64,000 bases of DNA from an uncultured Clostridia bacterium (GTDB lineage: Bacteria > Bacillota > Clostridia > TANB77 > CAG-508), in NCBI GenBank assembly GCA_904378095.1, contig CAJFHE010000007.1, positions 5,457 through 69,456 of the forward strand. The letters run 5' to 3'. This document shows, piece by piece, positions 14,583-50,293 of the stretch. The notes under the pieces were generated by a model. The model made no database searches, was not told the origin of the DNA, and was given only the letters and a program-made list of their open reading frames with translations. The stretch's first letter is position 1, and every line of letters starts with the position of its first letter. A program made the position numbers and the translations under genes.

Positions 14583-14591
14583 GGGGAAGAA

Positions 14592-17186: not shown

Positions 17187-17209
17187 TTAAATAAATGGAG
17201 GCTACAATT

Positions 17210-18157: not shown

Positions 18158-18168
18158 CGGAGAGAAGT

Positions 18169-22402: not shown

Positions 22403-23728
22403 ATGAAGAATAATAAAAGAGAAGAAGTAATAAATAATATGCTTAAACTCAGAGAAAGTTTAAGTGAAGGTCTTAAGGAGAACAATCAAGAAATTGAAAA
22501 CATTGGATATTATAAAGACTTTAGATTTAAAGGCACACAATTTGGTGTTAATGATGCTTTTGTTGTAAAAATAAAAGATGATTCTGTACCACAAAAAGAA
22601 ATGGAGCCACGAGAAGCTGAAGAAAAGTATATTTATGAAATATACGATAAAGACAACAACTTGGTTGCAACAGTAGATATCGAAGGAAATGTTAGCTTTG
22701 CGCCTGAATATTTTGAAGGTATGGATGATGCATATTTAGAGGCTCTTGATTTGGAAAATGCGGAGTTTGAGTTGCCAGAAGAGTTAGAAAAAGATGATTT
22801 GGTTTTGACAAAAGGTGAACTAGATGAAATCCAAAACAGTAGAAGAATAGAAGATGTTTCTAAAAAAATCGGAAAAGAAGAAATCAGCTCATATTCTGAG
22901 ATGAAAACAGATCAAAAACCCCTATTTGACAAAATTACAAATAAGCAAGAAATAGACCCAAATACAAGAGTAACGCAAACCGAGACATTGGCTGACATGA
23001 TTCCAGAGCTAAAAGAAAAAGGAATAGTAAAAGTTGGTGTGGTATATTCAGACCATAGCAAAGGCCAAAGCGGTAGATTCTCATTTGTAGGAATTGATAA
23101 AGATGGAAATATACAGAAAATAGACAGTTTGCAGAATATAGAAGGTGCTACAACAGGACAAACAGTAACTTCTATAAATAGTACAGATGGAAGTGTTGTA
23201 GAGCAAGAGCAAGTTGCAGGCATGGTTAGAATTAATGAAAGAAGTAAAGCAAATGGAGAAGAGGAATATTTATCTGTAAAAGTAGGAAACTATGGAATAC
23301 TAGAAGTAGACTATGTAAGAGCAGATTTAAGTAAAGACAAAGACGAAAGATATTTGTCAGCTCCAATTGAAACTCAAAATATGAAACCTACTACAAGAGA
23401 AGTACGCGAGTTTATGGATAAATCAAAGAATACTGATATTTCAGAAGAAATAGAAAGAGCAAATCCAGAAATCGATAGAGATGATGATACACAAATGCAA
23501 AATATTGACGATACTGCAGGTAATGATGAAGTGACACCGGATGATATAATAGTTCTTGAAGATGGAACTAAAACCACATTAAGGCTAGAAGCGGCAAAAG
23601 ATAAAGTATCGCCAGAAGAATTTACAAGAAGGTATAATGAGAATGCAGGGAAAACGCCTGATGAAAAGATTGATAATCTACATGATGAAATAGAGGAAGA
23701 ATTTGGAGCGCCAAGTAGAAATAGATAA
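22403..23728 (+). CDS. acidic soluble protein, unknown function (last gene of the T4SS-like cluster)
   Basis: 441 aa with no TM or signal peptide, D/E-rich. RBS GAGG lies upstream. Confidence 0.5.
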   Translation: MKNNKREEVINNMLKLRESLSEGLKENNQEIENIGYYKDFRFKGTQFGVNDAFVVKIKDDSVPQKEMEPREAEEKYIYEIYDKDNNLVATVDIEGNVSFAPEYFEGMDDAYLEALDLENAEFELPEELEKDDLVLTKGELDEIQNSRRIEDVSKKIGKEEISSYSEMKTDQKPLFDKITNKQEIDPNTRVTQTETLADMIPELKEKGIVKVGVVYSDHSKGQSGRFSFVGIDKDGNIQKIDSLQNIEGATTGQTVTSINSTDGSVVEQEQVAGMVRINERSKANGEEEYLSVKVGNYGILEVDYVRADLSKDKDERYLSAPIETQNMKPTTREVREFMDKSKNTDISEEIERANPEIDRDDDTQMQNIDDTAGNDEVTPDDIIVLEDGTKTTLRLEAAKDKVSPEEFTRRYNENAGKTPDEKIDNLHDEIEEEFGAPSRNR

Positions 23729-23743
23729 TATAAAAAACACATA

Positions 23744-23783
23744 AAAAATCACCTTTAAAAATATAATTAAGAAGGTGATTTTT
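23744..23783 (+). terminator. 12-bp stem hairpin whose 3' arm contains the PBP gene RBS
   Basis: AAAAATCACCTT-N16-AAGGTGATTTTT, with ATG at 23786. Confidence 0.55.
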
Positions 23784-23785
23784 TA

Positions 23786-25204
23786 ATGAGAAATAAACTA
23801 AGTAAGAGAAAAATATATCAGGTTAATAAGTTGATTAATTTAAAAGAAGCGCTATATAAATGTTTAATATCTATAATTGTGCTTATAGCTATTTTAATTG
23901 CTTCCAGTGAAACACTGGTGACAGATTTTAATCTGTCACCTAGTTTTGCTAATGCTCAAGAAAATCTTGTTTTTGGGGACGGAGGAAAAAAACAAGATTT
24001 TATGGTACAAATAAATGAAGAAGATGAAGAAATAGACATTGAAGAGATACAAAAAGAAGTAATAGAAACAAGCTCAAATCCAGAAGAAGCTGATGTGGAC
24101 TCAAGGATAGCATTAATTTATGATAGAGCATCTGGGAAAATTTTATATGAAAAGAATGGAAACAAGCAAACTCCTATGGCAAGCACTACTAAAATAATGA
24201 CTGCTATAGTAGTTTTAGAAAATGCTAATTTAAAAGATGTAGTTACAATAGATTCAAAGGCGGCTGGAATTGGAGGCTCTAGATTAGGACTAAAAAAGAA
24301 TGATAAAATAACAGTAAACGATTTATTATATGGGCTAATGCTCCGCTCTGGAAATGATGCTGCAGTGGCATTAGCAAATTATGTTGGTGGAAGTGTAGAA
24401 AGTTTTGCACAGATGATGAATGAAAAAGCGAAAGAAATGGGACTTACAAATTCTCATTTTATAGTACCACATGGATTGGATAACGATGGGCATTATACAA
24501 CAGCGTATGAGCTTGCAAAAATGGCAGACTATGCATTAAAGATAGATAAATTTAAACAGATAGTAGGCACACAAAACACTACTATATATATTAATGGATA
24601 TGCAAAAGCAATAAATAATACAAATAAATTATTAGGAAGTGTGTCAGGGGTATATGGAGTAAAAACAGGATTTACAAATGGTGCGGGAAGATGTCTGGTA
24701 ACAGCATGTAAGAGAGATGATTTAGACATCGTAACAGTAATTATTGGAGCTGATACAACAAAGCAGAGAACAGCAGATACTATTAAACTAATAAACTATG
24801 CTTATAACAACTTTGAAGTGATAAATATTAAAGAAATTGTAGAAGAAAAATTTGAGCAATGGAAAGCAATAAACCAAAGTAGAATATATGTGAATAAAGG
24901 TATAAAAAATAACGTAGAGTTGCTTTTAGAAGATATGCCTTTTGAAAACATGGCAATTAAAAAGAATAATAAGGATAAAATAGATGTAGAAGTTAATTCG
25001 ATTTTTTATTTAGAAGCATCAGTAGCTAAAAATCAAGTAATTGCAAACATGAAAATAACTATAAATGGAGAGACACTTGAAATATTAGAAGTGTATTCAA
25101 AAGAAGAAATTAGAAAAAAAGAAATGCAAGATTATTTTATAGAGTTTTTGGAAGTGATAAATCTTGTTTTTGGGGACGGAGGAAAAAAACAAGATTTATT
25201 CTAA
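23786..25204 (+). CDS. D-alanyl-D-alanine carboxypeptidase (PBP5/DacF-type) carrying translated repeat elements
   Basis: SxxK (ASTTK), SxN (RSGND), KTG (KTGFT) motifs and an N-terminal TM anchor. Contains F2 and F1 copies in-frame near the N-terminus. A further F1 copy supplies the last 14 codons. Confidence 0.85.
   Translation: MRNKLSKRKIYQVNKLINLKEALYKCLISIIVLIAILIASSETLVTDFNLSPSFANAQENLVFGDGGKKQDFMVQINEEDEEIDIEEIQKEVIETSSNPEEADVDSRIALIYDRASGKILYEKNGNKQTPMASTTKIMTAIVVLENANLKDVVTIDSKAAGIGGSRLGLKKNDKITVNDLLYGLMLRSGNDAAVALANYVGGSVESFAQMMNEKAKEMGLTNSHFIVPHGLDNDGHYTTAYELAKMADYALKIDKFKQIVGTQNTTIYINGYAKAINNTNKLLGSVSGVYGVKTGFTNGAGRCLVTACKRDDLDIVTVIIGADTTKQRTADTIKLINYAYNNFEVINIKEIVEEKFEQWKAINQSRIYVNKGIKNNVELLLEDMPFENMAIKKNNKDKIDVEVNSIFYLEASVAKNQVIANMKITINGETLEILEVYSKEEIRKKEMQDYFIEFLEVINLVFGDGGKKQDLF
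23906..23948 (+). repeat. F2 element translated in-frame (SETLVTDFNLSPSF)
   Basis: AGTGAAACACTGGTGACAGATTTTAATCTGTCACCTAGTTTTG inside the PBP ORF. Confidence 0.75.
23962..24000 (+). repeat. F1 element, exact consensus, translated in-frame (NLVFGDGGKKQDF)
   Basis: AAATCTTGTTTTTGGGGACGGAGGAAAAAAACAAGATTT inside the PBP ORF. Confidence 0.9.
25159..25197 (+). repeat. F1 element, exact consensus, forming the C-terminus of the PBP ORF (NLVFGDGGKKQDLF*)
   Basis: Identical 39-mer. The stop codon (25202-25204) lies just beyond the element. Confidence 0.9.
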
Positions 25205-25344: not shown

Positions 25345-25420
25345 GCGGGAATAGCTCAGTTGATAGAGCGCTGCCTTGCCAAGGCAGAGGTCGCGGGTTT
25401 GAGCCCCGTTTCCCGCTCCA
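25345..25420 (+). tRNA. tRNA-Gly (anticodon GCC), CCA encoded
   Basis: Acceptor GCGGGAA/TTCCCGC, anticodon arm CTGCC-TTGCCAA-GGCAG, T-arm GCGGGTTTGAGCCCCGT. Confidence 0.9.
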
Positions 25421-25591: not shown

Positions 25592-25666
25592 GGCGACATA
25601 GCCAAGTGGTAAGGCACGAGTCTGCAAAACTCCGATTCCCCGGTTCGAATCCGGGTGTCGCCTCCA
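25592..25666 (+). tRNA. tRNA-Cys (anticodon GCA), CCA encoded
   Basis: Acceptor GGCGACA/TGTCGCC, anticodon loop CTGCAAA, T-arm CCGGTTCGAATCCGG. Confidence 0.88.
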
Positions 25667-25794: not shown

Positions 25795-25949
25795 AAAACA
25801 TAAATTAAAATATGAATATCCGTAGGCATTATTTTACTTAAATTTAATCATATGGAAAATAAGGAAAATATTGATATTGACTTAGTTACAAAAAATAAGT
25901 AAAATATATAATATATGATATTAAAAGGATTAAAAGGATGGGGAAAAAT

Positions 25950-28900
25950 ATGAAACTAAAAAAAATAGCTTTAATAATCATAATGTCATTATTTGCAGTT
26001 ATATTCATGAGTGCTTTTAACACATCAAATGCAGCAACAGGTAGTAAATTTCTTACAATAACGATGTTAAGAAGTAGAAATGGATATGGCTATAAGGCAA
26101 ATGAAAAAAATGTATGGAGAATTGTAGAAGCGGACAGTGCAGGAACGTTTAATTATGATAATACTATTTATTGTATTAAAGGTGGACCAGGATTTGGACC
26201 TAACGGATTCGACTCTACAGGTGATGGTAATGATCCAAGCAAAAAACCTTCTATAAGGGAATACACTAGGTATTTCGATATGAAGGATCCAAATTCAATA
26301 CCAAGCCCATATAAAGAAGTTTTACCAGACACGAATAGCGAGACTTACAAAGCATTATTATGGTTATTAGAAAATATATATGTTAGACCAGCAGAAAATG
26401 CAACACTTGAAGAAGAACAACAAGCAGAAGAGTTTAAAAATAAATTATTAAACGATGCTGGAATTTCAGATTCATATTTAACTGATGATGATATAGATGT
26501 GGTACAACAATTAGCAATATGGCATTTTACTAATGCTGGAGACGAGTATGATGTAGGAGAATTTTTACCATCTATATATGCTAATGCTACACCTGGCTCT
26601 AACTCGAATTATCAACCTTTAGGAGATAATAAAAATGATGGCTGGGAGAGAGATGAGCAAGCAAGACAATTGTACCAATATTTAATAGATACAGCAACAC
26701 AAAATGCTCCTACTTATGTGGTAAGTACAGCAAGTCAACCATATGAATTAGCTGATTTAACGCAAACAGTAAGAATCGAAGAAAATAGTTATATCATAGG
26801 ACCTTTTAGAATAAATAAAATAAGTGACACAAATGGAACGTTAGAAGGTAAATTTACAAATGGCACAGGTGAAGAATTAAATCCAACATTCCAAGACGCA
26901 TCAGGAAGCAGATTTAATAGCCTAGAAGATACAATAGGAAAAGATTTTTATATTGTGCTACCTAATACTACAAATATAGAAGAAATAACCTTTACTATAA
27001 GTGGAAGTTATTTTAAAACAAATATTAATTTCTGGTCAGTAGAGGGAGCACCAGAAGCAGACCAACCAGTAGTAATAATAGATAGAGAAAAAACAGATTA
27101 TAGTGACAGTACAAAATTTACATATGTAGAAGAAAACTTTGACTTAGCATTAAGAAAATTCATATCATCTATTACATCTGGAGCAACAGTGACAACACCA
27201 GACAATAGAGTTCCAACTATAAGCGATAAAGAAAAACAAGCATTAGCAGATGGAAGCAAAACAACAGCAGAGAAAATACATTCTAAAACACCATTAGTTG
27301 TAAGCACAGGAAATACTGTATTATATACAATAAGAGTGTATAATGAGGGAGATATAAATGGTATTGTAACAGAGATAACAGATTACTTACCAGATGGCCT
27401 TGCTTTAAAACAGGATAGTGATATAAATACTAAATATAGTTGGGTAGACAATGGAGACGGAACTGTTACAACGGATTACCTTTCAGGCACAGAAATTCCG
27501 GCTTTTGACGGAACAACATTAAGTTACCTTGATGTACAAATAGAGTGCGAGGTAACAGCAACTGTACAAGAGAATGATGTTAACCTAAAGAATATTGCAG
27601 AAATAACTGGAGCAACAGATTCAGAAGGCGAAGATATGACAGATAGAGATTCTACACCAGATAATGTTGATGTACCAGGATATGGCGATGAAAGCCAAGA
27701 AGATGACGATGACTTCGAAGACTTAGTAATCTTAGGTCAATACTTTGACTTGAGCTTAAGAAAATTCATTACACAAGTGAATAGTACAGAATTAAAAGAT
27801 GAAACTGGAAGATATTTAAGAGAGCCAGTAGTAGATGTAACACCACTTGCATCTGGAACGTCTACAACAGCAATATATAATCATCCAAAAGACCCTGTTG
27901 AAGTAGCAATAGGAGACGAAGTTATTTATACAATAAGAGTATATAATGAAGGTCAAATTGATGGTTATGTATATGAAATAACAGACTATTTACCTGCGAA
28001 CCTAGAATTTATAAATGATGATTTTAATGCATCTTATGGTTGGAAAGTAGGCGAAGATGGAAGAACTGTAACAACGGATATCACGTCACCAGACACACTT
28101 TATTCTGCAAGCAGAGATACAATCTATGAAAACAGAAAAGACGGAGCAGATAAAGTTATACTAGAAGCATTTAATGGAACAAATTTAGATTACATAGATG
28201 TAAAAATAAAATGTAGAGTAAAGGATACAGCTGTTGCAGAAGAAAAATTAACAAATATTACAGAAATAACAGAATACAAAGATTCAAACAAAGAAGATGT
28301 AACAGATAGAGATTCAACAAAGGATAATATTACTTTACCATCAGATGATACACTTCCAAACTATAAAGATGACGAAATAAATAGAGGAGACGAATACATA
28401 CCAGGACAAGAAGATGATGATGACTTTGATAAAGTCGTAATAGAAAAATTCGATTTGGCATTAAGGAAATTTATTACAGGTGTAAACGAGCAAGTTATAA
28501 CAGATAGAGAGCCAGTATTTAGCATAGTAGATGGAGAATATGTATATAATCATACAAAAGAGCCAGTAGAAGTTGCTACAGGAGACACAGTAATATATAC
28601 AATTAGAGTATATAATGAGGGAGATATTGCAGGCTATGCAGAAGAGGTAAAAGATGATTTACCAGAAGGCTTAGAGTTCTTACCAGACAATACAACAAAT
28701 ATCAACTATAGGTGGGTAATGTATGATGCAGAAGGAAATGTTACAGAAAATGTAGCAGATGCAGAAACAATAAGAACAGATTATTTATCAAAAGCACAAG
28801 AAGATGAGACAGGAAGAGACAATTTGATAGAGGCATTTGACCCAGACACAATGGCAGAGCCAGATTATAAAGAAGTAAGAATAGCGTTTAAAGTAACAGA

Positions 28901-30269
28901 GCCAAATACATCGGACAGAATTTTAATAAATACGGCTGAAATTTCTGAAGATGCAAACGAAGATGGAGAGCCAGTAGATGATATAGACTCAACTCCAGAT
29001 AATGATGAAGATGGAGAAGATGATATCGATATAGAAAAAGTTAAAGTAAATTACTTTGACTTGGCATTAAGAAAATTCATTACAGGTGTAAATGATGAAG
29101 CTATAACAAATAGAGTTCCAGTATTTAGCATAGAAGATGGCAAGTATGTGTACACACATACAAAAGAGCCAGTAGAAGTTGCTACAGGGGACACAGTAAT
29201 ATATACATTAAGAATATACAATGAGGGACCAATCGCAGGCTATGCAGAAGAAGTAAAGGATGATTTGCCAGAAGGCTTAGAGTTCTTACCAGACAACGAG
29301 ATAAATACAGAATACAGATGGGTAATGTATGATGCAGAAGGAAATGTTACAGAAAATGTAGCAGATGCAGAAACAATAAGAACAGATTATTTATCAAAAG
29401 CTCAAGCAGATGAAACAGGAAGAGACAACTTAATTCAAGGCTTCGATACAGAGACAATGACACAACCTGACTACAAAGATTTGCAAATTGCATTTAAAGT
29501 AACAGAGCCAAATACATCAGATAGAATTTTAATAAATACAGCAGAAGTATCTGATGACTCAAATGAAAATGGAGATCCAGTAGATGATATAGATTCAACT
29601 CCAGATAATGATGAAGATGGAGAAGATGATATTGATATAGAAAAAGTTAAAGTAACATACTTTGACTTAGCATTAAAGAAAATTATTTCTAAAGTTACAA
29701 TGACACTAGACGGAGAAACCACTGTTGAAGAAACAGGACATTCATTTGAAGATGACCCAGAAGAAGTTGTAAAAATAGAATTAGGAAATCATAAAATAGA
29801 GGACTCAGTAATAAAATTCACATATCAAATTCGTATAACAAACGAAGGCAATAAAGCAGGATATGCATATGAAGTAAAAGACTATATACCAGAGGGATTA
29901 GAGTTTGTTGCAGAAGACAATAACGAGCATTGGACATTATCAGAAGATGGAAAAACAGTAACAACTGACGAATTAGCAGATACATTATTACAACCTGGAG
30001 AAAGTGCTGTAGTAGAAATCACATTAAGATGGATAAACGGACAAACAAATCTAGGTGTAAAAACAAACTGGGCAGAGATTTCAGAAGACAGTGATGATGA
30101 TATAGATTCAACTCCTGATAATAATACACCAGGAGAGGATGACATTGATGATGCATCAGTAGTTCTATCAATCGTAACAGGTATTGGAGAGCACTATTTA
30201 GGAGTAATTACAGCAGTACTTGTAATATTAGCTGGAGGAATAATATTAATTAAGAAATTTGTGCTATAA
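25950..30269 (+). CDS. giant surface adhesin: predicted thioester (TED/TQXA-like) head, five DUF11-type repeat modules, C-terminal TM anchor
   Basis: Signal peptide. TIYCIKGG (Cys codon 26172-26174) and VVQQLAIWHFTN (Gln codons 26505-26510). Five modules start FDLALRKFI...GDTVIYTIRVYNEG...DIDSTPDN. Tail is SIVTG + hydrophobic stretch + KK. The track ORF starts at 25938; ATG 25950 is better placed. Confidence 0.6.
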   Translation: MKLKKIALIIIMSLFAVIFMSAFNTSNAATGSKFLTITMLRSRNGYGYKANEKNVWRIVEADSAGTFNYDNTIYCIKGGPGFGPNGFDSTGDGNDPSKKPSIREYTRYFDMKDPNSIPSPYKEVLPDTNSETYKALLWLLENIYVRPAENATLEEEQQAEEFKNKLLNDAGISDSYLTDDDIDVVQQLAIWHFTNAGDEYDVGEFLPSIYANATPGSNSNYQPLGDNKNDGWERDEQARQLYQYLIDTATQNAPTYVVSTASQPYELADLTQTVRIEENSYIIGPFRINKISDTNGTLEGKFTNGTGEELNPTFQDASGSRFNSLEDTIGKDFYIVLPNTTNIEEITFTISGSYFKTNINFWSVEGAPEADQPVVIIDREKTDYSDSTKFTYVEENFDLALRKFISSITSGATVTTPDNRVPTISDKEKQALADGSKTTAEKIHSKTPLVVSTGNTVLYTIRVYNEGDINGIVTEITDYLPDGLALKQDSDINTKYSWVDNGDGTVTTDYLSGTEIPAFDGTTLSYLDVQIECEVTATVQENDVNLKNIAEITGATDSEGEDMTDRDSTPDNVDVPGYGDESQEDDDDFEDLVILGQYFDLSLRKFITQVNSTELKDETGRYLREPVVDVTPLASGTSTTAIYNHPKDPVEVAIGDEVIYTIRVYNEGQIDGYVYEITDYLPANLEFINDDFNASYGWKVGEDGRTVTTDITSPDTLYSASRDTIYENRKDGADKVILEAFNGTNLDYIDVKIKCRVKDTAVAEEKLTNITEITEYKDSNKEDVTDRDSTKDNITLPSDDTLPNYKDDEINRGDEYIPGQEDDDDFDKVVIEKFDLALRKFITGVNEQVITDREPVFSIVDGEYVYNHTKEPVEVATGDTVIYTIRVYNEGDIAGYAEEVKDDLPEGLEFLPDNTTNINYRWVMYDAEGNVTENVADAETIRTDYLSKAQEDETGRDNLIEAFDPDTMAEPDYKEVRIAFKVTEPNTSDRILINTAEISEDANEDGEPVDDIDSTPDNDEDGEDDIDIEKVKVNYFDLALRKFITGVNDEAITNRVPVFSIEDGKYVYTHTKEPVEVATGDTVIYTLRIYNEGPIAGYAEEVKDDLPEGLEFLPDNEINTEYRWVMYDAEGNVTENVADAETIRTDYLSKAQADETGRDNLIQGFDTETMTQPDYKDLQIAFKVTEPNTSDRILINTAEVSDDSNENGDPVDDIDSTPDNDEDGEDDIDIEKVKVTYFDLALKKIISKVTMTLDGETTVEETGHSFEDDPEEVVKIELGNHKIEDSVIKFTYQIRITNEGNKAGYAYEVKDYIPEGLEFVAEDNNEHWTLSEDGKTVTTDELADTLLQPGESAVVEITLRWINGQTNLGVKTNWAEISEDSDDDIDSTPDNNTPGEDDIDDASVVLSIVTGIGEHYLGVITAVLVILAGGIILIKKFVL
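27138..29660 (+). repeat. tandem coding repeats of about 606 bp (module starts 27138, 27744, 28449, 29055)
   Basis: TTTGACTT(A/G)GC module starts. Units 28449-29054 and 29055-29660 are near-identical at DNA level, by eye. Confidence 0.8.
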
Positions 30270-30376: not shown

Positions 30377-30405
30377 TTTACAATGAAAAAACCGTATGGT
30401 ATAAT
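30377..30405 (+). promoter_or_regulatory. promoter for the 30430-33092 operon
   Basis: TTTACA, 17-nt spacer, TATAAT (with upstream TG). Confidence 0.5.
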
Positions 30406-33092: not shown

Positions 33093-33166
33093 GAAATAAG
33101 GGGACTGTTCTTTTGTTCCAGAAATGAAACAGGGGGACAGTCCTTGAAATAAAAGGGGAGAAAAAA

Positions 33167-36100
33167 ATGAAGAAAAGAGTTGTAAAAGCGTTACTATTAT
33201 TAGTATTGGTAGTAATAATTATTATTGCTATTGTGAATACATACAAATGGATTGTTTGTGGAAATCAGTATATACAAATAAGTACTGCTGGTAAAGCATA
33301 TGCAAATAGCAATTTGTATGTTTCTGTTAATGCACAAGAAAATCGAGTAGACTTAGAAACAAAAACAAAATTAAAGCTTTTGGATTCAGATGGAAAAAGG
33401 GTAAAAAATGCTGAAGTTTCATATGATGGAAGTAATGCTGTAATAAGTATTCCAGACGTCGAAGCAGGAAATTATTTTATAGAAGCAAAAGTTTCTAGCG
33501 AAGCGGGCGTAGATACAGTTGAAAAGGAAATATATATTGCTGATGCTAACCAAGAGAATATTACAATAACATTTGATAAAGGAATATATAAATCTGGAGA
33601 TGAAGTGAATTTTAGAGCATTAATTACCAACAAAAACGATGACACACCTGTACAAAGAGAAGCCAATATTTGCATTTATGATGGAAATGATAATAAAGTA
33701 TATGATGAAACAGTAAATGCTTCCGAATATGGAATTACGAGCGGAACTTTTACATTGGCAGATGAGGTAAATAGTGGAATTTACAAGTTGGTTGTAAAAA
33801 CTAACATGGCAGAAACAACAAAACAGTTTAAGGTAAATCCATATGTAACTCCAAAATATGAGGTACAAATAGATTTTGACAAAGACAGCTATTTAGTTGG
33901 TGATACAGCCAAAATCAACCTTAATGCTGAATATTTTTTTGGTGAGCCTGTTTCAAATGCAAATTATACAGTGTATGTAAATAATACGAAGATTCAAGAT
34001 ATTGTAGCAGATGCAGATGGTAGAGCTAGTGTGGATTATAAGGTAGAAACAGCAGGAAAATATTCTGTAAAAGTAGAGGCAACAGATTCATCTAACTTTT
34101 TTGTTGAAGAAACAGGTAATTTCGCAGCAGGTACAGATATTTTTGAAGTAGAGCTACAGCCAGAGTACAACAACCTTATCTCAGGTAGACAAAATAATGT
34201 GTATGTATTTACTTCTGATGCTGAAGGAAACCCGGTAAAAACATATGTAACTATTTTCTCAAATGATTTTACAAAACAAATTGCAACTGATGAAAATGGT
34301 ATAGGAATGTTTACAATAGATATTGAAGCCACACAAAATAGTGGTAGGACTAATTATCAAGATTCTAAAATATTTACAATAGTTGCACAAAACATGGAAG
34401 GTGAGACTGTTCAAAAAAGTGCACGTTTATCAATTGAAACAAGTGATTTGCTAATTTCTACAAACAAAGTTAAATATAACCAAGGAGAAGATATTAATAT
34501 AAATCTTTCTTCTGTAGTTGAGAATACAAAAAATATCTATTTTTTTAAGAATGACAAATTAATTAAAATGCTTACTACAGATTCTTCTGATTCTACAGTT
34601 AATTTTGGAGATATATATGGCTTAATTGATATATATGTATCTGCAGATTCATCAGCAACAAGATATGATGAAGATAATTTATATAAAAGAACAATATTTA
34701 TTAAACCAGAAAAGAAATTAAATATATCTATTAATACTGACAAGCAAGAATATGCACCAGGTGATAATATATCAATCTCTTTTGCAACTACAGACGAAAA
34801 TAATAACAGTGTAGATAGTGCATTACTTGTAAGCATGCTAGATAATTCTGTATTGAATTTGGCAGATAATGATCTTTCTATTGATAATATAAAACTGGCT
34901 TTATCTGATATAGTATTTTCAGATGAGTTTGATGCAGCCACATTATACTCATGCATTATAGATGATGCATCAGAGCAAACATTAACGGGACTATTACTAA
35001 AGCAAAGTGACAGAGATGCAAACATATCAGAAACAGGCATATATAATGTTGAAGAAGAAGGAAACGCTGCTAAAATTGCGATAATTCTTTGGATTAGTAT
35101 AGCAATTATCATCATTATAGTTTTATGCGTTAAATTACCTAAATTTAGAGAGGCAATGCTACACTTTTTAAATTGTACAATATATGTAATAGTAGTTACA
35201 ATATTGGTGATGTCAGTGTTAGATGAGATAGCATGGAGTCTGCTGTATGATTTTGCAGCAGGAATTATGATTGCTGTACTCATAGTTACTGCAATAACAT
35301 ATGTGATTTGGGTTTCGAAATTAGACAAAAAGATTACTAGAACTTCAGTTTCATTATTAATAACGTCAATTATTTTTATGTTAGCAATATTCCTAATCGA
35401 AGAGTTTGATATAAATATTGTAATATTATTACTAATACTTGTGTTAATAGTCCTAATTCTAGTAATATTATCAAAAGTAAGTGAAACTAAAAATTTAAAA
35501 ATAAATAAATACATGAGAAAAATCGGAAAAGAAGTTATATATATTTGCAAATTTATAAGTGCATTAGCAATTTCACTGTTTGTAGGAATTATTATAGAGC
35601 GTATAATTGACATTTATTTAACAGGAATACCTATAGCAATAGTAGGAACATATTTCTTAAATTACTTATTTAACAAATTAGGAAAAGAAGAACAAACAGA
35701 TGACAGCCAACAATTTATGAATAAAAGAACTTACAGCTTTTATATATTGTGCGTATTAGCATGTATTGGAGCAGTTACAATCTGTTATTTTGTAATAAGC
35801 GAGTTAAGCAATAGCACTATGAGTAGTGTAGATATGTCGGGACCTTCAAGTTATGAAGGAGATATAGCTGACGGATTCTTTGGTACGACGGATACACAAT
35901 CAATTACAGGCTCTGGAGGCATATCTTCTATACTTGAAGGGGCACAAGATTTCTTATCAGGTAGAGATGAAAATACTATAACAGAAAGTACAGAAGAAGA
36001 AACAAGCACACCAACTGTAGAAACTGTTGTTGATGACAATATAAGAAATGTATTCTTAGAGAGTATGTGCTTTGTACCAGAATTGGTAACAAGTAATGGA

Positions 36101-38101
36101 AATGCTCAATTAGACTTAGAGCTTAGCGACAATATAACAACATGGACAATTCAAACTGTAGGTAATACAAAAGATGGAAGAGTTGGCTATGGAATGATAG
36201 ATAATGTGCGAGTATTTAAAGAATTCTTTGTTGACTTCGAGCTTCCAACCAATTTAGTAGATGGCGACAAAGTAAGCATTCCAGTAACAGTATATAATTA
36301 TACAGACGAAGAAATTACTACAACTCTAAAGATAAACGAAGAAGATTGGTTTGAGTTAGAAGAAAATGATATTAATGTGACAGTCCAAGCATCAGGAGCA
36401 GAAATGGTGTATGTTCCAATTACCATAGCAGAAGTTGGAAATCACAAATTTAGAGTAGAAGTATCAAGTAATTCATTAACAGACATTGTAGAAAAAGAAT
36501 TGACCATATCTCCAAATGGATATAAAGTAGAAAAAGTAGTATCTACAGGAAGACTAGGAAATGATGTTTCAGAAGACATTTTGTTACTAGAAGATATGGT
36601 AGAGAACACAGGTACTGTGCATATCAAAATATATGCAAGCACAGTAGCACAAACAATAGAAGGAATGGACCAAATATTTAGAATGCCAACAGGTTGCTTT
36701 GAGCAGGTTTCATCAAGTCTATATCCAAATATATTGGCATTAAAATATTTACAAGATAATGGTATAGTAAATGAAGAAATAAAGGCTAAAGCTATTGAAT
36801 ATATATCATCAGGATACCAAAAACTTCTAACTTATGAAGTAAAAGGAGAAAGTGGTGGATATTCGCTATACGGACGCTCTCCAGCTGAAACAGTATTAAC
36901 ATCATATGGATTAATGCAACTTACAGATTTAAAAGACGTATATAATGTAGATGATGCAGTGATTAATAAAATGACTAACTTCTTATATGGTAAACAAAAC
37001 TCAAATGGATCATTTACAATAACAGGTTACAATGTGGCAGGATTGGGAACAAGAGAAAATTTAGCATTAAATGCATATATAACATGGGCGCTATCTGAAA
37101 GCAATCCAAGCCATGAAAAATTAGCTAAATCTATTGAATATTTAAAAGAAGAGATAGATGATGTTGATGACAACTATACGTTGGCATTAATTGCAAATGC
37201 ATTGGCAAATGTGGGAGACAAAGAAGCAGAAAATGTTGTAAAAAGATTAGTAAATAATGTGACAATAGACGGAAACAATGCTTATATCACATCTAATGTA
37301 AGAGATTACTATGGCTCGAGAGGAGATAATCAAACAATTCAGACAACTGCATTAACTTCAATAGCATTATCGAAGACGTCAATAAATGACAATGTCAATA
37401 AGATGCTTGTAAATTATTTAATAAGCAAAAAAGATGCTAGAGGAACATGGAATTCAACACAAGCTACAGCTCTTTCGCTTAAAGCAATAAACGAAATGAA
37501 TGAAAAAAATAGATTAGAAAACCAAACAATTACTGTAAGAGTAAATTCAGAAGAGCAAAAAATTGAAATAAAAGACAATGCACTAGATATTTATGAGCTC
37601 ACATTTACAGGATTAGGCAAAGAAAACAAATTAAATATTGATATTGAAAAAGGCAGTGCATATTATGAAGTCATAACAGAATATTATGTACCTTATGACA
37701 AAGTAGATACATCGGAAGACAAAATAGAGGTAAGTGTTGAGGCTAACGAAAGTGTAAAAGTAAATGAAGTATTGCAGGCAAAAATTAGACTTATAAATAG
37801 AAGCGATGAATCAATTTATAATGGAATGGTAACAATAAATATTCCTCAAGGCTTTACAGTACAAGAAGAAAGCCTAATGAGATTAGAAAGCAGAGGCATA
37901 ATAGAAAAATATGAGATTTCATATACATCAGTTAATTTATATTTAAGTGATTTTGAAAAATCTAGAATATTTAACTTAGATATTGATTTTAGAGCAGCTT
38001 ATCCAGTTGATATTACTGGCTTAGCAGTTAGAGCATATGACTATTACAATCCAGAAATAGAAGGGAAAGCAAAGCCAATTCACATCGTAGTAAGTGAATA
38101 A
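33167..38101 (+). CDS. alpha-2-macroglobulin family thioester protein with internal eight-helix membrane block
   Basis: N-terminal anchor and MG-like repeats. Eight predicted TMs at aa about 637-877 (35075-35797). Then NVFLES..FVPEL...DNITTWTIQ (FPExW/DSITTW-like) and thioester PTGCFEQ (36692-36706). Confidence 0.75.
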   Translation: MKKRVVKALLLLVLVVIIIIAIVNTYKWIVCGNQYIQISTAGKAYANSNLYVSVNAQENRVDLETKTKLKLLDSDGKRVKNAEVSYDGSNAVISIPDVEAGNYFIEAKVSSEAGVDTVEKEIYIADANQENITITFDKGIYKSGDEVNFRALITNKNDDTPVQREANICIYDGNDNKVYDETVNASEYGITSGTFTLADEVNSGIYKLVVKTNMAETTKQFKVNPYVTPKYEVQIDFDKDSYLVGDTAKINLNAEYFFGEPVSNANYTVYVNNTKIQDIVADADGRASVDYKVETAGKYSVKVEATDSSNFFVEETGNFAAGTDIFEVELQPEYNNLISGRQNNVYVFTSDAEGNPVKTYVTIFSNDFTKQIATDENGIGMFTIDIEATQNSGRTNYQDSKIFTIVAQNMEGETVQKSARLSIETSDLLISTNKVKYNQGEDININLSSVVENTKNIYFFKNDKLIKMLTTDSSDSTVNFGDIYGLIDIYVSADSSATRYDEDNLYKRTIFIKPEKKLNISINTDKQEYAPGDNISISFATTDENNNSVDSALLVSMLDNSVLNLADNDLSIDNIKLALSDIVFSDEFDAATLYSCIIDDASEQTLTGLLLKQSDRDANISETGIYNVEEEGNAAKIAIILWISIAIIIIIVLCVKLPKFREAMLHFLNCTIYVIVVTILVMSVLDEIAWSLLYDFAAGIMIAVLIVTAITYVIWVSKLDKKITRTSVSLLITSIIFMLAIFLIEEFDINIVILLLILVLIVLILVILSKVSETKNLKINKYMRKIGKEVIYICKFISALAISLFVGIIIERIIDIYLTGIPIAIVGTYFLNYLFNKLGKEEQTDDSQQFMNKRTYSFYILCVLACIGAVTICYFVISELSNSTMSSVDMSGPSSYEGDIADGFFGTTDTQSITGSGGISSILEGAQDFLSGRDENTITESTEEETSTPTVETVVDDNIRNVFLESMCFVPELVTSNGNAQLDLELSDNITTWTIQTVGNTKDGRVGYGMIDNVRVFKEFFVDFELPTNLVDGDKVSIPVTVYNYTDEEITTTLKINEEDWFELEENDINVTVQASGAEMVYVPITIAEVGNHKFRVEVSSNSLTDIVEKELTISPNGYKVEKVVSTGRLGNDVSEDILLLEDMVENTGTVHIKIYASTVAQTIEGMDQIFRMPTGCFEQVSSSLYPNILALKYLQDNGIVNEEIKAKAIEYISSGYQKLLTYEVKGESGGYSLYGRSPAETVLTSYGLMQLTDLKDVYNVDDAVINKMTNFLYGKQNSNGSFTITGYNVAGLGTRENLALNAYITWALSESNPSHEKLAKSIEYLKEEIDDVDDNYTLALIANALANVGDKEAENVVKRLVNNVTIDGNNAYITSNVRDYYGSRGDNQTIQTTALTSIALSKTSINDNVNKMLVNYLISKKDARGTWNSTQATALSLKAINEMNEKNRLENQTITVRVNSEEQKIEIKDNALDIYELTFTGLGKENKLNIDIEKGSAYYEVITEYYVPYDKVDTSEDKIEVSVEANESVKVNEVLQAKIRLINRSDESIYNGMVTINIPQGFTVQEESLMRLESRGIIEKYEISYTSVNLYLSDFEKSRIFNLDIDFRAAYPVDITGLAVRAYDYYNPEIEGKAKPIHIVVSE

Positions 38102-40574: not shown

Positions 40575-43500
40575 TTGAAAAGCTATAAAATTTTAAATAC
40601 AAAGGGTGCCGTATTAGATAAATATCAATTAGAGCAATATTTAGAAAAACTAGCATCAGACCATATATTAAAAGAAAAATCAGATAAAAATACGTATCCT
40701 ATTCCTAGAATGCAAGAAAATTTTGCAGCAATTACAGAGGTATATAACTTATTAAATGAGCATATTAAGCTAAAAATACCTATACATCCAGCAGGTGAGT
40801 GGCTTTTAGACAATTATTATATTATTGAAGAAACTGTAAAAAACATAGAAAAAGAATTGACATTAAAGAAGTACAAAAACTTTTTAGGAATAGCCAATGG
40901 AACAAATTATGGATTTGCCAGAATTTACGTGCTTGCTACAGAAATTGTCTCTTACACGGATGGTAATATAGAGGGCAAGCTTTTAACTGATTTACTTAGA
41001 GCGTATCAAGAGAAAAAGAAGCTTAGCATGGAGGAAATATGGAATATAGGTGTATTTCTTCAAATTGCATTAATAGAAAATATTAGGCAAATCTGTGAGA
41101 GTATCTATTCTGTCCAGATTCAAAAATATAAAGTTGAGAATATCATAGAAAGACTAATAGAAAACAAGTCGAAAGAGGAGCTACAGTTTAACAAACTAAA
41201 CGAATACAAAACTAAAGTAAAAGAATATGGCGAAATGAAATATCCATTCATAGAATATATGTCATATAAATTAAGGCAGTTTGGGAAAAAAGCATATCCG
41301 TTTTTAAATATTTTGGAAGAGCAAGTAAACAAAATGGGTATAGAGATTTCAGAAGTTATTAAAAAAGAGCATTTTGATATTGCAGTAAAAAAAGTATCCA
41401 TGGGAAATTCTATTACAAGTATAAAAAACATACAAAGAATTAACTTTATAGATATTTTTGAAGAGATAAATCAAGTTGACGACATATTAAAGCAAGACCC
41501 AGCAAATGTTTATGAGCAGATGGATTATAAAACTAAGATATACTACAGAAATAAGATACAAGAAATTTCTAAAAAAACAAAGATTTCAGAAATTTATATT
41601 GCAAGAAAATGCCTAGAGTTAGCTGAAGGAAAGCAAGGCAAAAAAGCCCACATTGGATATTACTTAATAGATAGTGGTAATAAAGAGTTAATGGAAAGTT
41701 TGCAAAATAAAAAGATAAACACATGGACCAATAATAAAAAGATAGGAATATATATTGTGGTAAAAGTGCTAACTAGTCTTGCAATATCTATTGGATTAGG
41801 TGGATATGTATTTGCACAAACTCAAAGTATTTGGCTTTGGATATTCACAGCAATATTGTTGTATATACCAATAGAAATTATTTTTATCCAAATAGTACAA
41901 CATATATTAAGCAAAATTATAAAGCCAAAATTAATACCAAAAATGGATTTGCAAAATGGCGTGCCAGCAGAAGATGCCACATTTGTAGTTATACCAACCA
42001 TTATAAGCAAAGAAGAAAAGCTAAAAGAAATGATGAAAAAGCTAGAAGTGTATTATATTGCCAATAAAAGTGATAATATATATTTTGCACTTTTAGCAGA
42101 TGTGACAAGTAGCGATAAAAAAGAGGAAGAATGGGACGAAAAAATAGCTTCCCTGGGAATAGAGCTTGCTAAAAAATTAAATCAAAAATATCCAGATGAG
42201 AATTTCCCTAAATTCCACTTTTTATATAGGAAAAGAGAGTGGAATGATAAAGAAGAGTGTTATCTAGGCTGGGAGCGTAAAAGAGGATTATTAACACAAT
42301 TTAATGAGTACATTTTGCAGAATAATAGAAATTTACAACATGATTTCTACGTAAACACCATAGACTTAGAAAAATTGCCCAAAATCAAGTATGTAATAAC
42401 ATTAGATGCAGACACAGAGCTTGTGCTAAATACAGGGTTAGAGCTAATTGGAGCGATGTCACACATTTTAAATAAACCAGAAGTGGAAAATGGAGTTGTA
42501 AAAAGCGGACATGGCATTATACAGCCACGTGTAGGGATTACCTTAGAAGCCAGCCGGTAGAAGCAAATTTACAAAAATATATTCTGGCTCTGCCGGTACA
42601 GATTCGTACACAAATGCAATATCTGATGTGTACCAAGATAATTTTGAAGAAGGCATTTATACAGGAAAAGGAATATACGATTTACAAGTTTTTGCTAATG
42701 TCCTAGAGAAACAAATACCAGAAAATACGGTCCTTAGTCACGATTTGCTAGAAGGCTCGTACTTAAGATGTGGACTATCATCAGATATTATGCTTATGGA
42801 TGGATACCCAACTTCGTATGCAGCTTTTAAAACAAGACTTAGCAGATGGACAAGAGGGGATTGGCAAATAATAAGATGGCTTAAGGGAAAAATAAAAGAT
42901 AAAGACGGAAAAGAAAATAAAAATCCTTTAGGGTTACTATCTAAATACAAAATCTTAAACAACCTAGTAAAAAGTGTGTTTGAGCCGGTTGCAGTTATGG
43001 CTATATTATTCTTAATAGGATTAGACATTATAGCAAGTATAAAAATTTGGCCATTAATGTCAGTGATTATCGTATCTGCAATAATTCCTTCAATTCTAGA
43101 AATAATAAATAGAATAATATACAAAAAAGAAGGAGAAAGTGGTCAAAGAACTTTCTATAAATCTATATCTGGTGTTAAAGCAAGCATTATTAGAGCTCTT
43201 TTAGAGATAGGTACATTACCAGACAAAGCCTATACAATGGTAAAAGCAATAGCTAAAACATTATACAGATTGCTAATTAGTAAAAAGCATTTATTAGAAT
43301 GGACTACTGCAGAAGAAGCGGAGAAAAACTCAAAAACAGATATAGTTTCTTATTATAAAAATATGTGGCCAAATCTAGTATTAGGAGTCATTTTGTTGCT
43401 ACTTTCGTATGCAAATCCATGGGTTATAATTTTATCACTAGGGTGGATTATTACTCCTAGCGTAATGAAGCTCATTAGTAAAAAAGAAAAATATACGCCT

Positions 43501-46500
43501 GCAATAGAGTATTTAAGCCAGAAAGACAAGGAGTACATGCTAGAAATAGGAAGAAGAACATGGAGCTATTTTAAGGAGAACTTAACAGAAAAATCCAACT
43601 TCTTACCACCAGATAATTATCAAGAAGACAGAAAAGAGCAGCTTATATATAGAACTTCTCCTACAAATATAGGGTTAGCACTTTTAGCAGTAGTTTCTAG
43701 TTATGATTTGGGTTACGAAAATCTAGAAGATACAATTTCGCTATTATCTAAAATGATAGAAATTATAGCAAAACTTCAAAAATGGAATGGACACCTATAC
43801 AACTGGTATGATTTAACAACATTGGAGCCATTATCTCCAAAGTATGTATCAACTGTGGATAGCGGAAACTTTATAGGGTATTTATACACACTAAAGCAAT
43901 TTTTACAAGACATTTTAAAAGAAATTGGAGAAGGCAAAATAAATCAACTAATTGCTAATAGAAGAAAAGAAGCAGAGTTTATACAAACTAAAAAAAATAA
44001 AGAAGGAGCAAATGAAAATGGCGAGAATAACAACTTTACAAATGTGCAAAGTGTGGAAAGTGATAAAGAAAAAGAAGAACAAACTGCAAGTGAAGACAAA
44101 AAATATAATATAAATGATGAAGAAATAAAAAAATATGAAACAAACAAAAAAGATAAACAAGATTTAACCGAAACAATCAATTACATGATAAACATAATTG
44201 ACAACACGATAGATGGCACAGACTTCAGATACCTCTACAGCGAAGAAAATAGAATTTTCTCAATTGGCTTTAATGTAGAAGACAACTCTTTAACTCCTTC
44301 ATATTATGATTTGCTAGCATCAGAAGCAAGACAGGCAAGCTTAATAGCAATTGCTAAAAAAGACGTGCCAGCAAAGCATTGGTATAACTTAAGCAGAACA
44401 CTTACTGTGCTTAACAAATACAAAGGCCTTATTTCGTGGTCAGGTACAGCGTTTGAATATTTAATGCCAAATGTAAATATACCAAAATATCCAGGCAGCA
44501 TTATAAGTGAATCTAGCCTATTTGCAATTATGTCACAACAAGAATATGCCAAAAAGCTAAATATTCCATGGGGAATTTCTGAAGCGGCTTTTAATTTGCG
44601 AGATTTGAATAATAATTATCAGTATAAGGCATTTGGAATTCCTTGGCTAGGCCTAAAAAGAGGATTAGCAGACGAGATGGTTGTGTCATCTTATGGAGCA
44701 ATGCTTGCAATAAATGATTTTCCAGAAGAGACTATAAAAAACTTAAAAGAATTAGAAAAAGAGGGAATGTATGACAAATATGGATTTTACGAATCAATTG
44801 ATTATACACCAAGTAGACTAAAAAAGAGAGAAACAAGTGCAATTGTAAAAACATATATGGCACATCATCAAGGGTTAATTCTGCTTTCCATCGACAATTT
44901 GTTTAACACAAATATTTTACAAAAACGATTTATGGAAAATCCAGAAATGCAATCAGTAGAAATATTACTAGAAGAAAAAATGCCAGACAATGTAATTATC
45001 ACCAAAGAGCAAAAAGAAAAAGTAGAGAAAGTTAAAAATATAGATTACGAAACATATGCAGTAAGAGAGTATAACAAGCCATTTGATAAACTAAAACATA
45101 TAAATATTATATCAAATGAGGACTACTCTGTAATAATAGACCAAAAAGGAGACGGCTATAGCAAATACAAGGACATTGTTATTAATAGATTTAAGAAAAC
45201 AGATGAGCTACAAGAGGGTATTCATTTCTTCTTTAAAAACATTAAGACAAAAAGAATATGGTCATCTGCTCAAATGAATTATCTTGCAGCAGCAGATAAA
45301 TATGCAGCATATTTTTCGCCAGATAGCAGTAAATTTGTAAGGCTTGATGGAGGAATAGAAACAACTACAAAAATTAGTGTTATGCCAAATAGTCCAGTAG
45401 AGATTAGAAGAGTAGAGTTAAAAAACTTAGGAAATTCAGAGGAAACCATAGAGGTAAACTCGTATATAGAGCCAATTCTCTCTTCACTAGAGCAAGACTA
45501 TTCGCATAAAGCATTTAACAATTTGTTTTTGACTTTTGAATTTTTGGAAGATACAAACACAATTCTAGTAAAGAGAAAGTCAAGGGATAACAATACAAAG
45601 GACATGTACATGGCTGTAAATTTATATACAGAGGACGATACAATTGGAGAATTAGAGTATGAATTAGATAAAGAAAAATTTGTGGGAAGACAAAATGTAG
45701 AGCTCCCTGTAGCAGTTCAAAATTCTGCTCCATTAACCAGAAGAGTCCAAAGAACCACCGAGCCAATTATAGCTATGAGGAGGACAATTAAAATACTGCC
45801 TAGCGAAAAAGTGGTGTTAAACCTTATCATTTCAGTGTCAAAGCAAAGAGAAGAAGCAATAAATAATGTTAGAGAAAACATGAATAACGAAAAAATTATA
45901 AGGAATATGAATTTGGCTAAAGCAAAGGTCGAAGCGGAATCGCTATATGTTGGAGTAAAGGCAGTAGACATAGAAAAATACCAAAACATGGCGAAATATC
46001 TAATTTATCAAAATCCGTTAAAGCTATTAATGTATAAAGGTAAAATTCCAGAAGAGGCACCAGTAGCAGAATTATGGAAGTATGGAATATCTGGAGATTT
46101 GCCAATTCTCCTTGTAAAAATAAAAGATGTTAGTGATATCTATGTGGTCAAAGACTGTATTAAAGCATATGAATATTTTAGAGTTAAAAATATAAAAATA
46201 GATTTAGTAATTTTAAATGAAGAGAAAAAAACGTATGAGAACTATGTTTACGAAGAAATAATGAATGCGATTTTAGATAGTAATTTGGCATATATGCAAA
46301 ACCAAAAAGGTGGAATATTTGTTTTAAGCAATCTAGAAAAAAATGCCAAGAGAATACTAGAATATAGAGCCAACTTGTTGATTAATGCTCAACTTGGAAA
46401 TGTGTCTAGACAGATAAAAGACTATGAGGAGGAATATCTAGACAGCATAAAAGAAATGGGAGAAGAAGTAGAAGCAATACCAATTTTAGAGGAAGAAGTG

Positions 46501-49369: not shown

Positions 49370-49457
49370 GCGTATGGAGTCACTTGGTAAGTGGCTCTAT
49401 TTTTTTGCTTGGAAATTCAAAAAGTACTTGTATAATTTGACGAAATGTGATATAAAT

Positions 49458-50261: not shown

Positions 50262-50284
50262 CAATTAATAATTGCTAACCATTA
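50252..50284. other. perfect 33-bp palindrome spanning the response regulator stop codon
   Basis: TAATGGTTAGCAATTA-A-TAATTGCTAACCATTA. Confidence 0.9.
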
Positions 50285-50293
50285 AAAGTAGAT

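Follow-up and report, generated by a model that had tools for sequence, protein, structure and literature searches.

A predicted eight-helix membrane bundle within the bait-region domain of an alpha-2-macroglobulin/TEP-family thioester protein from uncultured Clostridia

A stretch of 64,000 nucleotides (nt) from an uncultured Clostridia bacterium (assembly GCA_904378095.1, contig CAJFHE010000007.1), in the following termed the window, encodes a thioester protein of 1644 amino acids (aa) on its forward strand (33167-38101). It is a clear member of the superfamily formed by alpha-2-macroglobulin (A2M), the thioester-containing proteins (TEP) and complement factor C3. These proteins represent a textbook molecular machine of innate immunity. 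The Clostridia protein carries, in addition, a block of eight predicted transmembrane helices. Sequence comparison and modelling indicate that this block is best described as an insertion in the bait-region domain, ahead of the probable bait. The favoured reading, with a probability of about 0.55, is a membrane-integrated thioester protease trap, in which the linker behind the last helix would act as bait. Taxonomy points to a monoderm host. The features of the gene are the following.

33167-38101 (+): whole gene, membrane-integrated A2M/TEP-family thioester protein (open reading frame list, translation and Pfam; 1644 aa)
33191-33256 (+): N-terminal hydrophobic helix, predicted signal-anchor, aa ~9-30 (Kyte-Doolittle peak 3.49; AlphaFold2 helix 3-30)
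33257-34843 (+): array of beta-sandwich macroglobulin (MG) domains MG1-MG6a, predicted extracytoplasmic, aa 31-559 (Pfam MG2/MG3; AlphaFold2 beta blocks 35-559; Foldseek)
34844-35047 (+): conserved helical N-terminal part of the bait-region domain, aa 560-627 (conservation 0.79; AlphaFold2)
35048-35815 (+): predicted eight-helix transmembrane bundle, aa 628-883 (Kyte-Doolittle peaks, AlphaFold2, loop charges, orthologs)
35816-36064 (+): disordered, hypervariable, acidic linker, probable bait region, aa 884-966 (conservation, AlphaFold2, alignment with human A2M)
36068-36331 (+): MG6b/MG7 'A2M' domain, aa 968-1055 (PF00207; alignment with human A2M; conservation 0.84)
36629-37492 (+): thioester domain (TED), aa 1155-1442 (PF07678; alignable with the TEDs of CD109, TEP1, A2M and A2ML1)
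36692-36706 (+): thioester motif GCFEQ, aa 1176-1180, with Cys1177 and Gln1180 (sequence; kept in orthologs)
37031-37033 (+): Asn1289, aligned with the catalytic His of TEP1/C3 (ortholog and TED alignments)
37829-38059 (+): C-terminal MG8 or receptor-binding-type domain, aa 1555-1631 (PF07677)

The open reading frame (ORF) is single and uninterrupted within DNA of about 30% G+C. A first-pass annotation, made from the sequence alone, had described it as one ORF with an N-terminal anchor and MG-like repeats. The ORF list, a Kyte-Doolittle (KD) scan with a 19-residue window, Pfam and AlphaFold2 (AF2) agree with that description. Pfam mapping places four domains above their cut-offs: MG2 at aa 134-223 (64 bits, cut-off 32.8), A2M (PF00207) at aa 968-1055 (72.4 bits, cut-off 21), TED_complement (PF07678) at aa 1155-1442 (137.6 bits) and A2M_recep (PF07677) at aa 1555-1631 (37.6 bits, cut-off 21.7). 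MG3 at aa 226-305 reaches 22.4 bits, marginally below its cut-off of 23.1. The proposed family identity is thus borne out by Pfam, and equally by sequence matches to PDB chains and by Foldseek. A weak similarity to A2M_BRD (PF07703) stops at aa 565. A CUB domain was not matched by Pfam in the 1644-aa protein. The intervals flanking the TED (aa 1056-1154 and 1443-1554) are of CUB-like size and can be aligned with human A2M throughout. Beta strands occupy aa 1062-1115 in the modelled part of the first interval, as the AF2 model ends at aa 1120. At the N-terminus, the peptide MKKRVVK ahead of the first helix is predicted to be cytoplasmic (mean N-terminal net charge +3.8 over 97 orthologs). A lipobox is absent from the N-terminus, and Cys31 is not kept in the ortholog consensus. 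MG1 begins about four residues past the N-terminal helix in the AF2 model. The MG1-MG6a array resembles CD109, A2ML1, C3 and TEP1 in Foldseek comparisons (E ~1e-35).

The bait-region domain begins with the motif NDLSIDNIKLAL...LDAATLYSCI...SEQT.M.LLLKQ, which has a top-residue frequency of 0.79 and is kept even in the most divergent members. AF2 predicts three short helices at aa 560-611 and a strand at aa 620-626, leading directly into helix 1 at aa 628. The KD scan revealed a hydrophobic segment at the N-terminus and a further eight within aa 635-880; the eight segments noted in the first pass (aa 637-877, 35075-35797) fall inside this range. The AF2 model of the block alone (aa 626-886, 39-sequence alignment) is a confident bundle of eight helices, with a mean predicted local distance difference test score (pLDDT) of 82.9 and a predicted template modelling score (pTM) of 0.75. 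Helix boundaries extend from aa 628 to 887 (35048-35827), and beta structure resumes at aa 967. A larger model covering aa 1-1120 (73-sequence alignment) has an overall pLDDT of 75.6.

Loop charges and conservation were computed over 97 aligned full-length orthologs. Loops 1, 3, 5 and 7 carry mean net charges of +3.9, +3.1, +4.2 and +1.3, loops 2, 4 and 6 of -1.9, -1.6 and -1.0. The segment before the block (-1.9) and the linker behind it (-9.8) are negatively charged. According to the positive-inside rule, this alternation indicates an N-in topology with both large halves of the protein outside the cell, which agrees with the expectation drawn earlier from the even number of helices. Shown by loop charges and modelling, the predicted order is a cytoplasmic N-terminus, a signal-anchor, MG1-MG6a outside, the membrane bundle, and again outside the linker with MG6b-MG7-CUB-TED-MG8. 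The top-residue frequency is 0.65-0.9 in the ectodomains and about 0.5 in the helix block. Within the block, the cytoplasmic-face loops are best conserved (0.61-0.69), followed by helix cores (0.43-0.53) and outer loops (about 0.40). The best-kept positions are polar or aromatic and located mainly at the cytoplasmic face (H666, N669, Y712, T726, S729 and K781, further Y792, Y829, N832, N836 and G868). The cytoplasmic loops comprise 11-22 aa, and a cytoplasmic domain is not present.

Helix 8 is followed by a linker of 64-114 aa among the orthologs, rich in S, N, D, T and E. It shows the lowest conservation of the protein (0.28-0.38) and a pLDDT of 26-35 in the AF2 model, with one short helix at aa 920-930. 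A semi-conserved island at aa ~918-930 reads SSILEG..F in the window protein and SSI..G...F across orthologs. The linker contains residues cleavable by many protease classes. In a HMMER alignment, aa 955 corresponds to residue 701 of human A2M, the C-terminal end of the bait just ahead of RKYFPETW. The following MG6b/MG7 domain carries the FPETW-like motif NVFLESMCFVPEL and the motif DNITTW, aligned with RKYFPETW...DTITEW of human A2M. An S/T/E-rich linker, then NVFLES..FVPEL..DNITTWTIQ and then GCFEQ had been named in this order by the annotation, and all three are present. It had also placed the membrane block where the bait region should be. This holds in part: the block does lie in the bait-region domain, but it does not replace the bait, whose position is occupied by the linker after helix 8. 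The conserved helical start of the domain before the block and the disordered segment at the bait position after it suggest that the block precedes the probable bait.

The architecture is widespread. A first homology search was evaluated for the best 120 of 282 clusters, which share 46-71% identity with the window protein and are nearly all about 1650 aa long. The hydrophobic block occurs in every cluster among these 120 matches, and GCFEQ in all but one, a fragment ending before the thioester domain. A second search, seeded with a member just 35% identical (P0143), added 117 clusters, all with GCFEQ; the spacing between the thioester and the 6-8 hydrophobic peaks ahead of it is unchanged. In full-length orthologs of the two sets, the block is found at the same position and GCFEQ is invariant (97/97 and 117/117, together 214). 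Close orthologs free of the insert, which the annotation had proposed to look for, were absent among the 120 best matches of either search, the P0143-seeded one included. In total, at least 230 ortholog clusters of ~1640-1720 aa possess both block and GCFEQ. They stem from uncultured, mostly gut Clostridia, are uncharacterised and were recovered from separate sources (ENA, NCBI, JGI and Logan). The carriers are metagenome-assembled genomes (MAGs) of Clostridia from gut and rumen. Five loci of different GTDB species were recovered, all from uncultured Clostridia/Eubacteriales MAGs (Hadza gut, rabbit and other samples). The only name given by any source is 'hypothetical protein [Clostridia bacterium]', and NCBIfam holds no model for the whole protein.

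A joining of two genes by misassembly or frameshift, one for an N-terminal MG protein and one for a membrane protein or a C-terminal A2M, had been raised as a caveat and is hardly credible. The 90% cluster of the window protein comprises 13 full-length variants of 1644 aa from independent assemblies and different samples, nearly identical with 25 differing sites. These variants and the same continuous architecture in more than 230 clusters from independent assemblies exclude an assembly fusion or frameshift. In addition, the insert interrupts MG6, a domain divided in this way in all A2M proteins, so that neither half would be complete as a protein.

The family is, judged by sequence, nearest to the metazoan proteins CD109, A2ML1, A2M and TEP1, and not to the A2Ms of E. 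coli and Salmonella. A single-sequence phmmer search against PDB chains retrieved human A2M with 2.5e-49, as well as CD109, A2ML1, TEP1 and C3. The family profile matched CD109 (2e-72), A2ML1 (6e-71), A2M (7e-69) and TEP1 (2e-58). No E. coli or Salmonella A2M chain was found by phmmer at E<=1e-3 or among the best 60 hits of the family profile. In Foldseek comparisons of the aa 1-1120 model, CD109 and A2ML1 ranked top (E ~1e-35), with the E. coli protein ECAM (5a42) at rank 31 and the Salmonella protein Sa-A2M (4u48) at rank 41 (E ~1e-28 to 1e-30). With CD109, A2ML1, A2M, TEP1 and C3 the Clostridia protein shares MG1-MG6, an insert in MG6, MG7, MG8 and, judged by spacing, a probable CUB-TED-CUB arrangement. 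Shared are also the CxEQ motif and, immediately behind the bait or probable bait, the FPETW-like and DxITxW motifs. The host, in contrast, is bacterial, and the thioester motif reads CFEQ instead of the metazoan CGEQ. CD109, like the Clostridia protein, is membrane-attached. However, metazoan thioester proteins are soluble or anchored by glycosylphosphatidylinositol (GPI), whereas the Clostridia protein possesses an N-terminal helix and the eight-helix bundle. In metazoa, MG6 is interrupted by a soluble segment of ~66-126 residues, termed bait region, ANA or linker (PMC12939704). In the Clostridia family the insert comprises about 400 residues and includes the predicted transmembrane bundle.

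Two classes of bacterial A2M have been described, both from Gram-negatives, where all members reported so far are lipoproteins or periplasmic proteins. Type I possesses the thioester and is encoded beside pbpC, while type II lacks the thioester and belongs to the mag operon (PMC5764988). The Clostridia family belongs to neither. With the type I proteins ECAM/YfhM and Sa-A2M it shares the bacterial host, the monomer size, the CxEQ motif, an outward-facing position at the cytoplasmic membrane and the presumed role in protease defence. Type I A2Ms have been viewed as an envelope protease defence (PMC5764988). ECAM-type proteins are, however, Gram-negative lipoproteins often encoded beside pbpC, whereas the Clostridia protein has neither a lipobox nor a gene for penicillin-binding protein 1c (PBP1c) as neighbour. 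Type I A2Ms contain additional N-terminal MG0/NIE domains (PMC12939704). The Clostridia protein has about six MG units before the insert, as in eukaryotes, and no extra N-terminal domains are evident. ECAM and Sa-A2M lack a polytopic membrane insert, and their similarity to the Clostridia protein is at fold level only. With type II (MagD/YfaS) the protein has in common that both are envelope-associated macroglobulins, with a bait region in type II and a probable one in the Clostridia protein. It differs by its GCFEQ, and no mag-type six-gene operon surrounds the gene. In P. aeruginosa, the stability of MagD and the formation of a higher-order Mag complex require a separate transmembrane protein, MagB (PMC5764988). 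This pair is a precedent for an A2M coupled to a membrane component, although MagB is a separate single-pass protein and not an in-chain bundle. A 2026 review lists A2Ms for metazoa and Gram-negative bacteria only (PMC12939704). Archaeal A2M homologs have been noted, and the consulted part of that source does not mention a polytopic insert (PMC8416519). A description of a polytopic A2M was not found in the literature searched. The annotation had held the architecture to lie outside the known bacterial A2Ms, and such an insert was found neither among Pfam and NCBIfam models nor in a PDB fold or a paper. A distant relative (locus L008) harbors a second A2M-family protein of 1656 aa (22781-25058, +; Big_5, MG2 and A2M) 8 kb downstream of the polytopic one. 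Its first 759 residues include an N-terminal helix but lack the hydrophobic block, so that a differently built A2M paralog exists beside the polytopic type.

The bundle itself has essentially no known relatives. Foldseek of the bundle against solved and predicted folds (PDB and BFVD) gave no match below E=1, and no Pfam match to the block reached its cut-off. A block profile searched against 1.84 billion (1.84e9) representatives yielded 33 matches at E<=1e-3. The inspected ones were full-length family members (block at ~aa 650-900 of ~1670), fragments and one spurious DUF805-like protein. A mobile or stand-alone module was considered and rejected, as no stand-alone or otherwise fused homolog occurred among these representatives. 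An internal 4+4 duplication of the bundle was likewise discarded (hhalign probability 1.3%). The sole family with recurrent similarity to the block is TgpA_N (DUF3488, PF11992), with weak matches in 16 of 39 orthologs. On retesting, eight of ten sequences gave weak colinear matches (block ~15-145 versus profile ~15-147), reversed sequences none of ten. Scores ranged from 9 to 23 bits (best 22.6), below the 30-bit cut-off. In the window, the TgpA_N-like signal covers 35048-35480, helices 1 to 4 or 5. In TgpA of P. aeruginosa, TgpA_N comprises five membrane helices ahead of a periplasmic transglutaminase domain, and its helix 1 starts in the cytoplasm (PMC3507681). Helix 1 of the Clostridia block, in contrast, is predicted to start outside, an apparently opposite orientation, and no Transglut_core domain follows. 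TgpA-like proteins were missing among the block-profile matches. The similarity is taken as a lead, not as a relationship.

For the protease trap, the following mechanism is proposed. The N-terminal helix and helix 1 would hold the MG1-MG6 ring at both its ends, only a few residues away from the outer face of the cytoplasmic membrane, making the protein a surface-fixed sentinel. An exogenous protease reaching the membrane surface, in the gut a host digestive enzyme or that of a competitor, would cut the linker after helix 8. The cut would set off an A2M-type rearrangement, exposing the buried Cys1177-Gln1180 thioester, and the protease would be captured covalently. The N-terminal fragment would stay anchored, and non-covalent contacts, among them those across the split MG6, could hold the complex at the cell surface, as in C3b or cleaved A2M. 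Such a protein might be a functional analogue of the inner-membrane-tethered periplasmic ECAM, adapted to a cell that lives among host digestive proteases and whose envelope lacks an outer membrane by which a soluble trap would be kept in place. Of the two functions considered in the annotation, tethering of the trap is more economical than a coupling of bait cleavage to a membrane event.

Several points weigh against the protease trap. Thioester formation, bait cleavage and protease capture are presumed by homology. One helix suffices for anchoring, and the bundle has eight. It is well packed, with conserved polar residues mostly at the cytoplasmic face, a hint of an extra role. Once cut, the C-terminal thioester fragment would have no anchor of its own, so that its retention would rest on non-covalent contacts. 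A fast within-species diversification of the linker, as in a bait arms race, found no support, since variable sites are evenly spread over all regions of near-identical strains (1.3 per 100 aa in the linker, 1.3-2.0 in other regions). The variability of the linker among orthologs may thus reflect disorder alone. Finally, residue 1289 varies by lineage. Among the 97 close orthologs, it is His in 83 and Asn in six, the latter representing the species cluster of the window protein; in an alignment covering the second subfamily it is Tyr in 106 of 118. The preferred thioester nucleophile may differ accordingly, and the targets are perhaps not uniform.

This residue bears on a complement- or TEP-like tagging or adhesion, which is considered distinctly less probable than protease trapping. 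The protease would then be only the trigger, and the thioester would bond to hydroxyl or amine groups of a nearby surface. Targets could be glycans of host mucus, wall polymers of the cell itself, a competitor or a phage particle; the cell would thereby become fixed to a substrate, or an invader would be marked. The catalytic His of the C3/A2ML1 type confers hydroxyl reactivity. The His of the 83 close orthologs aligns with the catalytic His of TEP1 (WHKDMQGG) and would give the C3-type reactivity. However, this position is occupied by Asn in the window protein, as in human A2M, which traps proteases, and by Tyr in the second subfamily. The proximity in sequence and fold to CD109, TEP1, A2ML1 and C3, rather than to the bacterial protease-trap A2Ms, is in favour of tagging. 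So are surface-protein genes close to the gene: one of thioester adhesin type with a Gram-positive TED (PF08341) and DUF11 repeats 3 kb upstream, a likewise placed DUF11/SpaA-repeat gene in a close relative, and proteins of S-layer homology (SLH) or S-layer type beside two distant orthologs. A protein pinned to the membrane beneath a Gram-positive wall would nevertheless be poorly placed to reach external surfaces.

Still less support is given to a bundle acting as a sensor, channel or transporter-like module, by which the cell interior or the bilayer would respond to the state of the bait or ectodomain. As an unlikely variant, a transmembrane complement-like sensor is conceivable. Bait cleavage would be relayed through the bundle, acting as protease receptor or gated pore, or a distortion of membrane or bundle would draw the bait out of the macroglobulin ring and fire the thioester without proteolysis. 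The confident packing of the bundle and its retention in at least 214 orthologs down to ~35% identity speak for a transducing role. Eight helices wired directly to the bait exceed the need for anchoring, and near-invariant polar residues accompany the well-conserved cytoplasmic-face loops. These basic loops may, however, be mere topogenic signals; they are short, no cytoplasmic domain is attached, and the bundle is less conserved than every ectodomain. Genes for a response-regulator-GGDEF protein and a CmpB-family protein lie immediately upstream in the window and in the locus of a 71%-identical ortholog, but are not kept in more distant orthologs. Homology to transporter, channel or sensor families was not detected by Pfam, Foldseek or the block profile. 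According to a structural report on human A2M, the conformational change is set off when the bait, once cleaved, retracts from a central channel (PMC9352918). If this applied here, force could be passed on by a bait that is joined to a membrane domain.

A large conserved clade of gut Clostridia thus carries an A2M-type protein nearer in sequence to animal CD109/A2M/TEP than to E. coli A2M. In the literature searched it is the first case found of a bait-region domain with a polytopic membrane domain, and the eight-helix fold has no solved or annotated relative. If the protein traps proteases at the membrane surface, gut commensals would possess a hitherto unrecognised defence against digestive enzymes of the host or proteases of competitors. 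A bundle that transmits information would make it a new type of receptor. A trap fired by membrane distortion would respond to membrane damage, and either form of the sensor would be a new mode of the A2M/C3-type switch. The family is also relevant to the old question of a horizontal transfer connecting the A2Ms of bacteria and animals.

The gene appears to act alone, as neither a conserved neighbour nor a PBP1c gene occurs in six contexts. A conserved operon partner was sought over these six contexts and rejected. The absence of an adjacent PBP1c gene, stated for the window in the first pass, extends to the five other loci. The genes upstream of the A2M gene encode the PF08341-TED protein, a Big_13 membrane protein, a CmpB-family membrane protein and the response-regulator-GGDEF protein. 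Their spacing is, in order, 160 nt, an overlap, 4 nt and 74 nt, and a good promoter-like site is located at 30377-30405. Downstream follow an AAA_14/DUF4143 ATPase and an Amidase_3 gene. The 71%-identical ortholog has kept these neighbours, with two genes inserted ahead of the A2M gene. The Big_13, CmpB and GGDEF genes are common to this closest relative only, and orthologs at 46-59% identity have unrelated gene contexts. A close relative (L006) carries its DUF11/SpaA-repeat surface-protein gene at the same upstream position, and the SLH or S-layer-type proteins flank the gene in the two distant orthologs. Further features upstream of this gene cluster are listed here together with the PF08341 protein.

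12597-14582 (+): VirB4/TraG-type P-loop ATPase
14592-17186 (+): 864-aa protein with a T4SS_pilin-like segment
18169-20976 (+): 935-aa wall hydrolase with lysozyme and M23 peptidase domains
25345-25420: tRNA-Gly
25592-25666: tRNA-Cys
25938-30269 (+): surface protein of 1443 aa with a Gram-positive TED (PF08341), five DUF11/CLIPPER repeats and a C-terminal membrane helix, without LPXTG

With the PF08341 protein, 3 kb upstream of the A2M gene, the window encodes two structurally unrelated kinds of thioester protein. The sole penicillin-binding protein nearby is a D-Ala-D-Ala carboxypeptidase (Peptidase_S11 and PBP5_C; 23786-25204, +) 8 kb upstream, and it does not belong to the PBP1c-type synthases. 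Two GGGGAC(N)GT motifs lie in the 74-nt leader of the A2M gene (33100-33143, +), where 0.15 are expected. An inverted repeat within them, GGACTGT...ACAGTCC, is spaced by ~28 nt just 5' of the ribosome-binding site and could form a regulatory hairpin. Opposite to the A2M gene, an antisense ORF of 358 aa (34537-35613, -) is unusually long for 30% G+C. It was rejected as a gene, as its length is not conserved (longest in orthologs 97-198 aa), and it is likely a by-product of the Ile/Leu/Val-rich codons of the helix block.

Among unannotated ORFs, a type IV secretion-like gene set at 11402-20976 (+), including the ATPase, the T4SS_pilin-like protein and the wall hydrolase, suggests the remnant of a conjugative element; the two tRNA genes lie just downstream of it. 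A 2133-aa protein encoded at 42628-49029 (+) combines Glycoamylase, GH94 supersandwich and GH94 catalytic domains, resembling a cyclic beta-1,2-glucan synthase or a glucan phosphorylase. It is followed by a two-component system (49374-51727). In the relative L006, a GH94 gene is likewise located downstream of the A2M gene.

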